Below, piece after piece: positions 6,696 through 10,358 of a DNA stretch of 10,358 nucleotides. The notes under the pieces were generated by a model, which saw only the letters and a program-made list of their open reading frames with translations, did no database searches and was not told where the DNA came from. Source of the DNA: a virus; the UHGV virus genome UHGV-1708535. One strand, written 5' to 3'. Each line of letters begins with the position of its first letter. Positions within the stretch are counted from its first letter, which is position 1. A program made the position numbers and the translations under genes.

Positions 6696-8111
6696 TCAAC
6701 CTACACCACAAGGAATTGAGTAACTGGAATAGTCGGGTTGCGCAGCCGACTCCGGGCAATGCATACACATCATCAACGCATCAGCCAGGTTAGGAGATGG
6801 GATCCCGAGCTTTTGCTTCATTTCGACCTTAGTCATAAGCTCCAGCTTCCCGTTGTTATTGAATTTGCGCTGAATCTGCGTCAGTTCTGCAAACAGCTTC
6901 TCCAGCATCTTCTCGCCTATCGCTTCTTTGTCGAAACTCAGCATGTCGTCGGGGTCTGCATACTCACCGTGAACAACCGCCCGATATGTCAGATACAGCC
7001 TGTCAGCCAGCGCGTAATAGAATTGCGCTCGCTTATTGCGGAATACATCGCCAATAGTGCGAACATTGTCGCCCTGTACGACTTCATCAGCCCATGCTCC
7101 GGCCTGATATGGCGCATCTTCATCGAATGGCGATTCGCTGCCCTTGAACATCGTGGCGGTGATTTTCTTGCCGGAGAACGCTTCCGTTGTCTGTCTGCGT
7201 AGACCCGCACCAACACCATCACCATCCCACAGGTAATGGTCAGAGCCGTCTTCAATCGCCAGCGAAGTAGCCCAGTCAGCACCCTCGTTGATGTCCATCA
7301 GCAGACCTTCGGCAATGCGCTTAACTACCGAACCGTGACGCGATGCATAACCTTTAGCATCTGGCCCTGTATCTGATGGGTCATGCGCAGAAACAACAGC
7401 GCCTTTCGCTTTCCATCCGAGTTTCTTGTGCGCATCGGTTGCAGCTTCAAGCCATTCACGTTTGATGATTGCCATATCACTTGCGCTTACTGGCTCACCA
7501 AGCCAGATGTGACGATACAGTGTCGGATTTCTGCGTTTGCACTCTTCCATCTCCAGACGGAGAACTTCAGGAAAGTGCGGGTTGTCGGTGTAGTTCACCG
7601 TCAGCAGGCAAATATCATCGGGAGGATTTACGACGAATCGCTGATAGGTATCGTCGAGGATGTTCTTCGGGTTAAAGCTCACCCATATTTCAGAGAACGG
7701 CTTACGGATGGTTGGGATCAGGATATCCCATGATTCCTTCGTTACCGCTTCCGCTTCTTCCACCCAGCAGATATCAATGCCTTCGAGCGATTTAATCTTC
7801 GTCGGGTTGTTTTTGATGCCGTAGAACATGAACTCAGCATTCGTTCCGAGATGACGAATCATGGAACGCTGAATTTCAAACTCAGCCGAATACCCTTCCC
7901 GCTCGATGGTGTCTTCAAGCAACCGGATTACCGAATCGCTGATACTGTTTTGCAGTTCACGAGCGCAGAGAATACGCACAGGCTGTCGGCGCGCCGCTTC
8001 AACAAGCAGCCTCGCAATTGCCCATGATTTACCGCTACCTCGACCGCCTTTGGTGACTTTGTAGCGATGCGCCTCAATGAACGGTTCAAAGATAGGATTA
8101 ATCGAGGTCAT
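6696..8111 (-). CDS. terL: Terminase large subunit (ATPase/nuclease), 471 aa
   Basis: ORF track 6696..8111; Walker A P-loop GGRGSGKS near the N-terminus (KVTKGGRGSGKSWAIARLL); size typical of P22/Sf6 large terminases; ATGA start/stop overlap with the small terminase gene. Confidence 0.9.
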   Translation of the reverse strand: MTSINPIFEPFIEAHRYKVTKGGRGSGKSWAIARLLVEAARRQPVRILCARELQNSISDSVIRLLEDTIEREGYSAEFEIQRSMIRHLGTNAEFMFYGIKNNPTKIKSLEGIDICWVEEAEAVTKESWDILIPTIRKPFSEIWVSFNPKNILDDTYQRFVVNPPDDICLLTVNYTDNPHFPEVLRLEMEECKRRNPTLYRHIWLGEPVSASDMAIIKREWLEAATDAHKKLGWKAKGAVVSAHDPSDTGPDAKGYASRHGSVVKRIAEGLLMDINEGADWATSLAIEDGSDHYLWDGDGVGAGLRRQTTEAFSGKKITATMFKGSESPFDEDAPYQAGAWADEVVQGDNVRTIGDVFRNKRAQFYYALADRLYLTYRAVVHGEYADPDDMLSFDKEAIGEKMLEKLFAELTQIQRKFNNNGKLELMTKVEMKQKLGIPSPNLADALMMCMHCPESAAQPDYSSYSIPCGVG

Positions 8112-8530
8112 TTTCCGAATAGAGTGCTCATCGGTGATGTTTCAATCTGGATTGCGCCGCCGTCCTTACCGACAAGCTCGTTAGTTACCTTGTCGCCATA
8201 CTTACGGGGATTCATTCGGGCCAACGCCCATTTACGGGTATCTACGCGAAGTCTTGCCTTTGCCACCTCAGCAGCATCTGGAATCGCAGTGTCAGCAATT
8301 TCGAATATCTCTTCGAAAATAGAATCAGCTCGTGCCTCAGTTGCCTTCGCGTACTTGTCGCGAAAATCCTCATGCTTTGCCAACCAGCGGAAAACAGTGG
8401 ACTTATCCGGCATACCAGGACGCTTACATACTTTCAGCAGACTTTCGCCAGAAGAAAGCAACGAGCAGATATCGTCAGCCACCTCCGGCATATAATCAGA
8501 GGGGCGACCAGCTTTTGGTTCAGTCGCCAT
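8108..8530 (-). CDS. terS: Terminase small subunit (Sf6 gp1-like), 140 aa from the second ATG (142 aa if the ATG at 8534-8536 is used)
   Basis: ORF track 8108..8536; gene immediately upstream of terL and overlapping it by 4 nt; sequence MATEPKAGRPSDYMPEVADDICSLLSSGESLLKVCKRPGMPDKSTVFRWLAKHEDFRDKY has the HTH-like N-terminal DNA-binding region typical of small terminases. I chose the second ATG (8528-8530) because the GTGAG purine run abuts the first ATG with no spacer; this choice is uncertain. Confidence 0.8.
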   Translation of the reverse strand: MATEPKAGRPSDYMPEVADDICSLLSSGESLLKVCKRPGMPDKSTVFRWLAKHEDFRDKYAKATEARADSIFEEIFEIADTAIPDAAEVAKARLRVDTRKWALARMNPRKYGDKVTNELVGKDGGAIQIETSPMSTLFGK

Positions 8531-8553
8531 ATTCATCTCACTTAGTTGTTATT

Positions 8554-8733
8554 TCAGGCTGAGGACTCTTTCGCGCCTTCAATCAGTGACTGCTTCAGCA
8601 ATTCGAGTGTGCCAATCGCCTCACATAAACTGATTTCACCATCGTAATCATGAATGACGCTTTCCAGCCGCTCGTATAGCTCTTGAGTAATTGGGAATTT
8701 CTTCTCCTTACCAAAATTGATTACGCGGCTCAC
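8554..8733 (-). CDS. Hypothetical small protein, 59 codons, GTG start; possible ribbon-helix-helix-like fold
   Basis: Not in the track (below 60 aa). Open frame from GTG at 8731-8733 to TGA at 8554-8556, GGAG 6 nt upstream of the GTG, 2 nt after the stop of the 80-aa ORF and 17 nt before terS. Translation (V)SRVINFGKEKKFPITQELYERLESVIHDYDGEISLCEAIGTLELLKQSLIEGAKESSA shows a strand-helix-turn-helix pattern reminiscent of RHH proteins; this is pattern inference only. Confidence 0.4.
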   Translation of the reverse strand: MSRVINFGKEKKFPITQELYERLESVIHDYDGEISLCEAIGTLELLKQSLIEGAKESSA

Positions 8734-8734
8734 A

Positions 8735-8977
8735 TCATGCTCCGGTAGTGAACAGGTCTAACGCTTCCTTCGATTTACGCACTGCTTCGATAGTGCGGGT
8801 CGTGATATCTGAATTAGCGCCGCCTGACTGGAAGTGAATTTTAAATAGCTCAAGCTTCAGCTCGTCAGTGCCAATGAACTGAAATGCTTCTTCTGCGGCT
8901 GCGTTCTGGTTCATGACCAGTTTGTAAATCTCTAACTGGAATTTCTGTTCTTCAGTCATGGGAATAATCTCTGCCAT
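8735..8977 (-). CDS. Hypothetical protein, 80 aa
   Basis: ORF track 8735..8977; GGAG 7 nt upstream of the ATG at 8975-8977; same strand and tight packing with neighbours; predicted helical, no family recognised. Confidence 0.6.
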   Translation of the reverse strand: MAEIIPMTEEQKFQLEIYKLVMNQNAAAEEAFQFIGTDELKLELFKIHFQSGGANSDITTRTIEAVRKSKEALDLFTTGA

Positions 8978-8990
8978 TGTTGGCTCCGTT

Positions 8991-9071
8991 TATCCGTTAA
9001 AAGGGATATCAGTTAAGTTATCCCGTGTAGGGTATAAGCCATTATCAAAGCCACTCTGTAGGGAATGGCTT
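8991..9071. repeat. Cluster of nested inverted repeats in the 103-bp spacer upstream of the 80-aa ORF
   Basis: Plus strand: TATCC (8991-8995) and TATCCC (9019-9024) can each pair with GGGATA (9003-9008); AAGCCATT (9036-9043) and AAGCCA (9046-9051) can each pair with AATGGCTT (9064-9071). These form two sets of mutually exclusive stems, adjacent to the Shine-Dalgarno of the 80-aa ORF. Confidence 0.6.
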
Positions 9072-9080
9072 TTGTAATAA

Positions 9081-9455
9081 CTACTGTTCGCTTAGCTTCT
9101 GCTTCAGCAAGTAACCTTCGAGCATCCAGATTTTGTTTACAGCATTCTGCCGGGCAATCTTCCGACCAATTTCTGCATCAAAGTTTTCCGGGCTCGCACA
9201 GGCACTCTCTCCGGTAACGGTGAAGCCATTCTTCAGTACCAATACGCAGAAAGTGAGAAGGTGCAGAGCATCAGGGGTGGCTTCGACATAAGGCTCCGGA
9301 TTATAAATAAGGTCATCTTCTTTAGCCTGGTGGTCACCCTGCGCAGCAGTGAAAAAATGCTCACTGCAAATGAGGCCTTCAATTTTCTCGGGTGTTACAC
9401 GCGGTGCCGTTTTGCCTTTCTCAACGATTTCTTTTTCGATTTGCTGGTCGTTCAT
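9081..9455 (-). CDS. Hypothetical protein, 124 aa, no family recognised
   Basis: ORF track 9081..9455; AGGGG 9 nt upstream of the ATG at 9453-9455; in-frame TGA 16 codons upstream rules out a longer N-terminus; flanked by non-coding spacers of 289 bp and 103 bp. Confidence 0.65.
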   Translation of the reverse strand: MNDQQIEKEIVEKGKTAPRVTPEKIEGLICSEHFFTAAQGDHQAKEDDLIYNPEPYVEATPDALHLLTFCVLVLKNGFTVTGESACASPENFDAEIGRKIARQNAVNKIWMLEGYLLKQKLSEQ

Positions 9456-9651
9456 AATTATGCCCCTGTGGAGTGGTTGCTTGATTAGGATGTCTTTCCA
9501 TCAGTCCGCCACCACAAAGAATCTTTTTTGCCATAAGGCAGGAGGTTCATCTTTCAGTGGCTGCCAGTGTTATTTCCCCGCTTACTGGCTTGGGTTGTTT
9601 CGCTGTACTGCCGTTAATTGGTTGCCCAGAATAAATTCCGGTTTCATTATC

Positions 9652-9673
9652 AAGCCCACCCGTAGATGGGCTT
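9652..9673. repeat. Stable hairpin (7-bp stem, 8-nt loop) in the 289-bp spacer
   Basis: Plus strand AAGCCCA (9652-9658) pairs with TGGGCTT (9667-9673). On the plus strand it is followed by TGTAAT (weak U-rich tail); on the minus strand by GAUAAUG (no U-tract). Confidence 0.7.
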
Positions 9674-9723
9674 TGTAATGGATAGCCGTTGCTCAGTTCT
9701 CGTAATGCTTTGATTTTTTCGAT

Positions 9724-9739
9724 AACGCAGTTTTGCGTT
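9724..9739. repeat. Hairpin (6-bp stem, 4-nt loop) immediately 3' of the KilA-N gene stop
   Basis: Plus strand AACGCA (9724-9729), loop GTTT, TGCGTT (9734-9739). On the minus-strand RNA it is followed by AUCGAAAAAAUC (A-rich, not a terminator tail). Confidence 0.65.
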
Positions 9740-9744
9740 TGCCA

Positions 9745-10266
9745 TCAGCACGCGATATCGAGAGTCAACTGCAGTTGCTCGCGCCAGTACTCGACATTTG
9801 CTTCAATAACCGGCTTATCCCATCGCCAGCGAGCCATCTCTCTTGCCCCATTGCTGGCTTTTGATTTCCGGTCATCGCGAATGCGACATGCTTGCTCATA
9901 TTTCTGCTGCTCAGTCAGTTCACCGCGAAGCAGACTATCAATGTGCAGGTCGCACCACACAGCAAAACGAGCATCACACCAACGGGCAAATGCAACTGAA
10001 AGTTTTGGATGTAGCCACGTACCACCACCCCTGTCCTTTCGTGCCTTGCTGGTTTTTACATACCTCGATTGTGAGGGATGTAAAATTTGAGATTCTTTCC
10101 CGGTCAACGCTTCGTCTAAAGCACGAACGTATTCAAGCGTTTCTGCCAAACGCATCCAGTTATCAATGCGTTTCCCAAATCTCTCAGCAACACCTGTGAC
10201 GTTGATCCAACCATCAGTGTTGAAACTGACAATTTCACCTTTGTAGTTAAGTGGCACGATATTCAT
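9745..10266 (-). CDS. KilA-N domain-containing protein, 173 aa
   Basis: ORF track 9745..10266; the translation contains the pattern I associate with KilA-N/APSES-type domains (GGGTWLHPKLSVAFARWCDARFAVW preceded by an N-terminal region NYKGEIVSFNTDGWINVTGVAERFGK); AT-rich codon choice relative to the structural genes. Domain assignment is from memory. Confidence 0.65.
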   Translation of the reverse strand: MNIVPLNYKGEIVSFNTDGWINVTGVAERFGKRIDNWMRLAETLEYVRALDEALTGKESQILHPSQSRYVKTSKARKDRGGGTWLHPKLSVAFARWCDARFAVWCDLHIDSLLRGELTEQQKYEQACRIRDDRKSKASNGAREMARWRWDKPVIEANVEYWREQLQLTLDIAC

Positions 10267-10358
10267 AACGTTTACCTACCATTTGAAATGAACCTTTGCC
10301 GCACAGGAAACCAGCCCACCGAGGCTCGCCAGCACTAACTGGTATCCTCAAAGGCCCA

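Follow-up and report, generated by a model that had tools for sequence, protein, structure and literature searches.

The window analyzed here, a 10,358-nt stretch of the viral genome UHGV-1708535, carries at positions 9081–9455 the gene of a 124-aa protein that stands apart from its neighbors. This raises the question of what the protein does for the phage and how its gene came to occupy this site. A sequence-only reading of the window had recognized no domain in the protein, had left its function open and had proposed, from the isolation of the gene between two structured spacers, that it was independently acquired cargo.

Genomic context of the gene

All genes in the window are on the minus strand (Table 1). 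The window represents the late genes of a phage or prophage of the P22/Sf6-like (Lederbergvirus-type) group, and the gene occupies the slot between the lysis genes, together with the KilA-N gene, and the DUF2560 and terminase genes. The DNA around it has piecewise matches in many P22-like phages of Salmonella, Escherichia and Shigella and in thousands of E. coli prophages. The isolation of the gene is real: 289 nt (9456–9744) separate it from the KilA-N stop and 103 nt (8978–9080) from the ATG of the DUF2560 gene, whereas the next four junctions downstream consist of 1 nt, 17 nt, a 4-nt overlap and 1 nt. The translation start proposed by the sequence-only reading also stands. On the minus strand, which the sequence-only reading had not named, the ATG is preceded by ...CCACAGGGGCATAATT-ATG, where AGGGG and its 7-nt gap make an acceptable Shine-Dalgarno sequence. 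Furthermore, the start is well defined because all 58 aligned homologues begin at the same N-terminus, M(N/S/T)D..IE.

Several observations concern the neighboring genes. The two small genes at 8554–8977, encoding the DUF2560 and 59-aa proteins, adjoin the candidate counter-defense gene and could be further accessory or anti-defense cargo. The 59-aa gene is absent from several relatives (e.g., E. coli M18 and S10). The KilA-N protein (9745–10266) recurs at 100% identity in Salmonella phage Emek and in many E. coli prophages. Its C-terminal part includes an ORF11CD3-like stretch (a weak Pfam match, E 0.013, below the cut-off), and the protein has a weak PADLOC match to the candidate defense protein PDC-S22 (E 1.2e-5). 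Its gene is another swappable module because sister prophages carry a Rha-family gene, Sf6 gene 65 or nothing in its place.

Table 1. Features in and around the 124-aa gene, followed by the residues of its product that align with the ligand contacts of SPO1 Acb4.
Feature	Position	Strand	Remarks
KilA-N protein	10266..9745	minus	Upstream neighbor of the gene
Hairpin, copy 1	9645..9679	minus	Just after the KilA-N stop; left-hand cassette boundary
Conserved leader/spacer, 189 nt	9456..9644	minus	Between hairpin 1 and the gene; from the alignment and the Emek sequence; retained in M18 and Emek, which lack the gene
Shine-Dalgarno-like AGGGG	9463..9467	minus	Read from the sequence; 7 nt before the ATG of the gene
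CDS, 124 aa plus stop	9455..9081	minus	From the ORF listing; ATG start; 9081–9455 includes the stop codon
Codons 38–65, hypervariable insertion between beta1 and beta2, intragenic mosaic	9261..9344	minus	From entropy, DNA identity and allele recurrence
Codons 66–124, highly conserved core (beta2, beta3, C-terminal helices)	9084..9260	minus	Mean column entropy 0.44 bits; aligns with SPO1 Acb4 ligand-pocket residues
Hairpin, copy 2	9040..9078	minus	Directly after the stop of the gene; right-hand cassette boundary
DUF2560 protein, P22 orf80-like, 80 aa	8977..8735	minus	Downstream neighbor of the gene
59-aa ORF, phrog_3546	8733..8554	minus	After the DUF2560 gene; like HK620 hkbN / Sf6 gene 68
Sf6-type small terminase	8536..8108	minus	Followed by large terminase, portal, scaffold, coat and further head genes
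Aligned to SPO1 K36	L66		Guanine edge
Aligned to SPO1 F48	F78		Stacks on guanine
Aligned to SPO1 E49	T79		Guanine edge
Aligned to SPO1 V56	C86		Adenine pocket; conservative
Aligned to SPO1 Y57	A87		Phosphate
Aligned to SPO1 F62	F92		Adenine pocket
Aligned to SPO1 N63	D93		Backbone contact to adenine
Aligned to SPO1 I66	I96		Adenine pocket
Aligned to SPO1 T70	I100		Phosphate
Aligned to SPO1 K81	M111		Phosphate

Family assignment and predicted fold

The protein does contain a recognizable domain, which the sequence-only reading had missed. Residues 20–121 cover positions 1–82 of the 82-position profile of PF13876 (Phage_gp49_66), the "Phage protein (N4 Gp49/phage Sf6 gene 66) family" of Pfam, with an E value of 2.4e-34 and 118.1 bits against a gathering score of 27. 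The protein also matches phrog_322 (E 1.2e-61), a group of unknown function in PHROGs v4, and neither it nor its three small neighbors had a match in NCBIfam; a PADLOC search with the protein was likewise negative. Among PDB sequences, the sole phmmer match was 9E4W, the anti-CBASS 4 protein (Acb4) of phage SPO1, and an hhalign comparison of the subfamily alignment with SPO1 Acb4 gave a probability of 94.7% over L67–I109.

The predicted structure leads to the same protein. The AlphaFold2 model of the monomer (mean pLDDT 78) has block means of ~78–96 over residues 21–110, with ~88–94 in the core segment from residue 66 to ~110 and values below 50 in residues 114–124. It has strands at 29–36, 67–74 and 79–85 and then a long C-terminal helix. 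A Foldseek search of the PDB with this model returned 9E4W chains only (probability 1.00). The modeled protomer thus combines three antiparallel strands with an N-terminal helical region and long C-terminal helices, and it can be superimposed on 9E4W. The region that would form the subunit interfaces (beta2-beta3 and alpha4) is the most conserved part of the protein, a pattern of sequence conservation that is compatible with a homotetrameric pinwheel. The protein, a small stand-alone product of a P22/Sf6-like late region (124 aa), almost certainly belongs to the Acb4/PF13876 family, and its gene is orthologous to Sf6 gene 66, one of the namesakes of PF13876.

The family to which we assign the protein has been characterized as one of anti-CBASS sponges since late 2024, which replaces the earlier description of its function as unknown. 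The SPO1 protein, 96 aa long, assembles as a pinwheel tetramer and binds four molecules of 3'3'-cGAMP per tetramer (Kd ~157 nM) in pockets built by three protomers; by itself, it prevents the activation of a CBASS effector in vitro and, in vivo, it rescues phage (Chang et al., bioRxiv 10.1101/2024.12.30.630793). The same study equated Acb4 with PF13876 (1,331 members). All eight homologues purified by the authors bound 3'3'-cGAMP and none bound c-di-GMP, and binding of c-di-AMP was restricted to homologues from phages whose hosts are Gram-negative (Chang et al., bioRxiv 10.1101/2024.12.30.630793). Sf6 gp66 (Q716B1) is among the Acb4 homologues in Table S3 of that study, as are 280 sequences with the exact core motif of the 124-aa protein, NGFTVTGESACASPENF. 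The Acb4 of phage N4 binds c-di-AMP (Kd 111 nM) as well as cUA-type CBASS-like signals. It triggers two guard systems, Panoptes and PanDA, for which it is both necessary and sufficient. A literature search found no paper on Sf6 gp66 or phrog_322 and no report of binding, oligomeric state or phage phenotype for the 124-aa protein or Sf6 gp66. The protein is an ordinary member of an already known and already characterized family.

The distribution of homologues is broad. In NCBI, the exact 124-aa sequence is found on at least 1000 contigs, under the name "MULTISPECIES: Gp49 family protein [Enterobacteriaceae]", and more than 8000 protein clusters match it. Homologues are found in 616 phage records (Ralstonia, Pseudomonas, Escherichia, Vibrio, Klebsiella, Bacillus and other phages). 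Furthermore, a close DNA homologue of the core is present in 514 of 5,426 complete E. coli genomes (~9%, or about one in eleven). Among 515 matching E. coli genome records, each of the 30 sampled carried the annotation "Gp49 family protein", and the four whose genomic context was inspected all had the gene in P22-like prophages.

Predicted ligand pocket

We mapped the ligand pocket (Table 1) by combining the MAFFT alignment, the hhalign register and the contacts named by Chang et al. (bioRxiv 10.1101/2024.12.30.630793). Three of the ten named ligand-contacting side chains of SPO1 Acb4 are identical in the 124-aa protein (F78, F92 and I96). The aromatic and hydrophobic cradle for the nucleobases is retained, and the guanine-specific and phosphate-contacting side chains are replaced. 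For comparison, the proven sponge N4 Acb4 agrees with the 124-aa protein at three of these positions, with T for SPO1 E49, C for V56 and F for F62. Because the SPO1 contacts are only partly conserved, we describe the protein as a candidate cyclic-dinucleotide sponge and assign no particular ligand to it. Analogy with the members from phages of Gram-negative hosts suggests 3'3'-cGAMP together with c-di-AMP or cUA-type signals as the likeliest targets.

A swappable cassette between two hairpins

The gene is bracketed by two copies of a hairpin of 35–39 nt whose core reads, on the plus strand, CATTATCAA(A)GCC...GGCTTT(T)GTAAT. The full plus-strand sequences are CATTATCAAGCCCACCCGTAGATGGGCTTTGTAAT at 9645–9679 and CATTATCAAAGCCACTCTGTAGGGAATGGCTTTTGTAAT at 9040–9078, and the pattern matches twice in the window against 0 matches expected by chance. 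Paired changes on the two stem arms distinguish the copies (GCCCA/TGGGC versus GCCA/TGGC). The two spacers that the sequence-only reading had called structured are not equally so. The 103-nt spacer folds with -29.8 kcal/mol versus -15.1 for shuffled sequences (z -4.8; 0 of 200 shuffles as good), in agreement with that description, and the 289-nt spacer does so more weakly (z -2.4). No Rfam family matched between 8400 and 10358 at E values up to 1.

Comparison with sister prophages and phages revealed the boundaries of the cassette. Many KilA-N to DUF2560 regions in complete E. coli genomes are 98% identical to the window and lack the gene. For example, E. coli S10 runs from hairpin 1 (...GGGCTTGATAATG; ...GATAATG) directly on to GCTTATACCC..., which in the window comes after hairpin 2, so that the spacer, the gene and the second hairpin are precisely missing. 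In E. coli M18, the 189-nt spacer is kept and a different short hairpin replaces the gene. Phage Emek keeps both the spacer and hairpin 2 and has, instead of the gene, an unannotated 23-aa ORF (MSAEGFNNPSKFRDEWDSSVKSK; ~386–457 of the Emek locus, minus strand) with a strong AAGGAG Shine-Dalgarno sequence and with hairpin 2 following it. This small ORF is an alternative micro-cargo of the same slot.

The association of gene and hairpins extends to related loci, of which 20 were examined. A homologue of the gene lies between the hairpins in all seven loci that have both copies (eight with the window), and the gene is absent from all 13 loci with a single hairpin under the strict pattern (11 with hairpin 1 and two with hairpin 2). 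The gene before hairpin 1 varies (KilA-N in the window, gene 65 in Sf6 and another gene in Huey), and the same slot is found in prophages that differ in terminase type and in the upstream gene, which is KilA-N, Rha or neither of these. The gene is, therefore, a swappable cassette bracketed by two hairpin copies, in a slot that is empty or holds other cargo in sister prophages. This bears out the idea of independently acquired cargo, as does the occurrence of the family in unrelated phages (N4-like, SPO1, Ralstonia and Vibrio phages). The hairpins look like module boundary sequences or mRNA-end hairpins rather than terminators because they lack a U-tail and coincide exactly with the indel boundaries.

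Two further observations were made on these elements. The 189-nt leader holds only short ORFs, one of 37 aa at 9421–9534 that overlaps the start of the gene (a hypothetical protein in Huey and, in extended form, orf53 in Emek) and one of 21 aa at 9485–9550, as well as a plus-strand terminator-like hairpin at 9524–9545. A scan of IMG/VR with the loose pattern CATTATCAA-N(10-30)-TTGTAAT returned 120 loci, mostly chance matches in unrelated viruses, 14 of them with a real hairpin; its use was limited to confirming that the gene is present wherever both hairpins are. Copies of the hairpin 2 type in two of the contigs (L028, 7445–7483; L047, 5895–5933) have no detectable Acb4, DUF2560 or KilA-N homologue nearby, so the hairpin element also exists in other contexts.

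A hypervariable segment within a conserved gene

Variation within the gene is concentrated in its center. In the subfamily alignment, mean column entropy is 2.6 bits at residues 38–63 versus 0.8 at residues 1–37 and 0.4 at residues 64–124. DNA identity to Sf6, Huey and MLI106K1 follows the same division, with 91–94% in codons 1–22, 33–36% in codons 38–65 and 92–97% in codons 66–124. One and the same central allele can be combined with different flanks, as is the case for the type present in the window, AQGDHQAKEDDL..PEPYVEATPD, which four of the aligned homologues share (P0002, P0009, P0011 and P0019). This recurrence points to the recombination of discrete cassettes rather than to drift by point mutation. 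None of the 616 phage records with homologues has an identical central allele, and the best protein identity among them is 75%.

In the AlphaFold2 model, the central segment is a helix (residues 37–51) followed by a loop. It lies four or five residues before the position that MAFFT aligned to SPO1 K36, and it is missing from SPO1 Acb4 and from some proteobacterial homologues. This surface helix-loop of 25–30 residues (38–65), beside the position that reads the guanine base in SPO1 Acb4, may be a recombining specificity or guard-evasion module, although we hold this reading tentatively and consider it rather doubtful. A role of the segment in tuning specificity or avoiding guards is speculation. 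If it were true, shuffling of the segment could retune which cyclic nucleotide is captured or allow escape from the guards Panoptes and PanDA. The presence or absence of the whole cassette would then reflect the same trade-off, being useful against CBASS and harmful in guard-carrying hosts.

Expression of the gene

A consensus-based scan of 8400–10358 detected no sigma-70-like promoter site, against 2.3 expected by chance, and a scan of the same kind detected no minus-strand terminator-like site in either spacer, where the flanking hairpins have no U-tails. An autonomous moron with its own promoter and terminator was considered and dropped, as the scan found neither. Because no promoter was detected and the hairpins lack a U-tract, the gene looks like a passenger of the late operon rather than an autonomous lysogenic-conversion gene. 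Its expression would most likely depend on read-through of the Q-antiterminated late transcript, and a sponge made in this way would therefore appear together with the late structural proteins. Such late expression is unusual for a counter-defense gene and counts against the interpretation of the protein as an anti-CBASS sponge.

Function of the protein and alternative explanations

On balance, we consider it likely that the protein is an Acb4-family sponge with an anti-CBASS function. In favor of this are the family and structure matches, the published activity of relatives, the retained nucleobase cradle and the accessory-gene behavior of the cassette. Besides late expression, the incomplete conservation of the SPO1 ligand contacts, the hypervariable insertion next to the K36 position and the basic pattern R98/K99...R102 weigh against it. 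Homology predicts its tetramer formation, ligand binding and anti-CBASS effect. The small protein, with a dsRBD-like alpha-beta-beta-beta-alpha core, would form a homotetramer and, in the pockets between its subunits, capture the cyclic dinucleotides that host CBASS produces. The likely ligands would be 3'3'-cGAMP and, as in other members from phages of Gram-negative hosts, 3'3'-c-di-AMP or cUA-type signals; c-di-GMP, a housekeeping signal, would not be bound. Sequestration of the signal would keep the CBASS effector inactive and allow the phage to complete its cycle.

A related explanation keeps the sponge mechanism and assigns it a ligand from outside CBASS, be it a messenger of Thoeris, of type III CRISPR or of another system, or 2'3'-c-di-AMP of the Panoptes-like type. 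The replacement of the guanine-specific and phosphate contacts of SPO1 Acb4 and the position of the hypervariable segment beside a pocket-lining residue are consistent with such a shift. Furthermore, Acb4 domains bind 2'3'-cAA, and their fusions with Sequestin or Tad2 target Thoeris. However, the anti-Thoeris activity of the fusions has been assigned to the partner domain, all eight of the diverse Acb4 homologues tested bound 3'3'-cGAMP, and the signals bound by N4 Acb4, which among the tested proteins is the closest relative, are CBASS-like (c-di-AMP and the cUA type). We therefore regard a non-CBASS ligand as unlikely. Less likely still is a dsRBD-like protein that binds dsRNA instead of nucleotide signals and that might shield phage dsRNA or influence how RNase III processes the late transcript. 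Canonical dsRBDs require a [KR]-x(1,3)-[KR] motif (KKxAK-type) at the N-terminus of the second core helix to bind dsRNA, and the stretch G97-R98-K99-I100-A101-R102 (9154–9168), at the start of the helix after beta3, fits this motif. The motif is described as lost in SPO1 Acb4 and kept in some phage Acb4-like proteins, and a similar K-EVA-R pattern appears in the Litunavirus Acb4-Sequestin fusions (MAFFT alignment). By its length and architecture, Ab09 gp59, a fusion shown to be a tetrameric sponge for cGAMP and 2'3'-cAA, would be one of these 147-aa fusions, although Ab09 is not among the 60 listed of their 72 records. In Acb4, residues of this region line the nucleotide pocket, which is positively charged, so the RKIAR pattern does not discriminate between the two functions; by analogy, the stretch could line the predicted nucleotide pocket of the 124-aa protein. 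Nor is the protein more similar, in structure or sequence, to dsRBDs than to other families.

Two annotations suggested by database labels or gene order are very improbable. Recent records of Escherichia phages Huey and Mimir124 and of Klebsiella phage phi1_146050 label close homologues as anti-CRISPR proteins, which would make the protein an inhibitor of CRISPR. In Huey (382–762 and 997–1497 for the two labeled genes), however, the same label and note are attached to an unrelated neighboring gene, and we judged them to be automated. Moreover, phrog_322 carries no such function in PHROGs v4, the NCBI name is "Gp49 family protein", and our literature search found no paper linking the family to CRISPR inhibition. 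We rejected the label, which for these homologues is probably a mislabel given the Acb4 literature. The location of the gene in a P22-like late operon, directly upstream of the genes for DUF2560 and the small and large terminases, could likewise indicate a head, packaging or lysis accessory protein. Yet the gene is dispensable, as many otherwise near-identical prophages and phages lack it. Terminase types differ among the prophages that carry it, and unrelated phage families have it too. Searches of Pfam, PHROGs and NCBIfam matched the protein to no structural or packaging family; the sequence-only reading had named a match to a head, tail or packaging protein as the result that would speak against cargo. 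We rejected a packaging-accessory role as well, since the pattern of presence and absence largely refutes it.

Acceptance of the protein as a likely anti-CBASS sponge has consequences for annotation and for phage-host relations. The annotation "unknown function" can be replaced by candidate anti-CBASS sponge, Acb4 family (PF13876), and the junction of lysis and terminase genes in P22/Sf6-like prophages is suggested to be a slot for accessory or counter-defense cargo. With a close copy in about one in eleven complete E. coli genomes, the family bears on the way in which temperate enterobacterial phages deal with CBASS, and also on the question of which hosts, by means of Panoptes- or PanDA-type guards, can use the sponge against the phage. 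Current understanding of the Acb4 family is unchanged by these results, and the modest leads that they offer are the hairpin-bracketed cassette slot and the recombining hypervariable insertion.

Comparison with known systems

The cassette resembles the morons of lambdoid phages in being a discrete insertion between conserved genes, with sharp boundaries and with presence or absence among close relatives. Unlike them, it has no detected promoter of its own, and its hairpins lack the U-tract of intrinsic terminators. The nearest counterpart at the level of the locus is Sf6 gene 66, which also follows the lysis genes and precedes the genes for DUF2560 (gene 67), gene 68 and the terminase, with the same flanking hairpins. 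Its product (Q716B1) is 75% identical overall, nearly identical in residues 1–22 and identical in the core (66–124). In contrast, the segment at residues 38–65 is unrelated (36% DNA identity), and the upstream neighbor in Sf6 is gene 65 rather than a KilA-N gene.

Among characterized sponges, SPO1 Acb4 (PDB 9E4W), the founding member of the family, is the more distant. At 96 aa, it lacks the insertion between beta1 and beta2, has different N-terminal helices and carries residues (K36, E49, Y57, T70 and K81) that are not conserved in the 124-aa protein. It also rejects c-di-AMP, which homologues from phages of Gram-negative hosts accept. N4 Acb4 (A0MZD7; gp48 in the literature and Gp49 in the Pfam name) is closer. 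Over 106 residues it is 44% identical to the 124-aa protein (E 5e-30); it likewise has an insertion between strands beta1 and beta2, and its phage infects the same host group. It differs from the 124-aa protein in its Cys-rich C-terminal tail, in having GKKYAY in place of the RKIAR pattern, and in its location in an anti-defense hot spot of the N4 type rather than in a lambdoid late operon.
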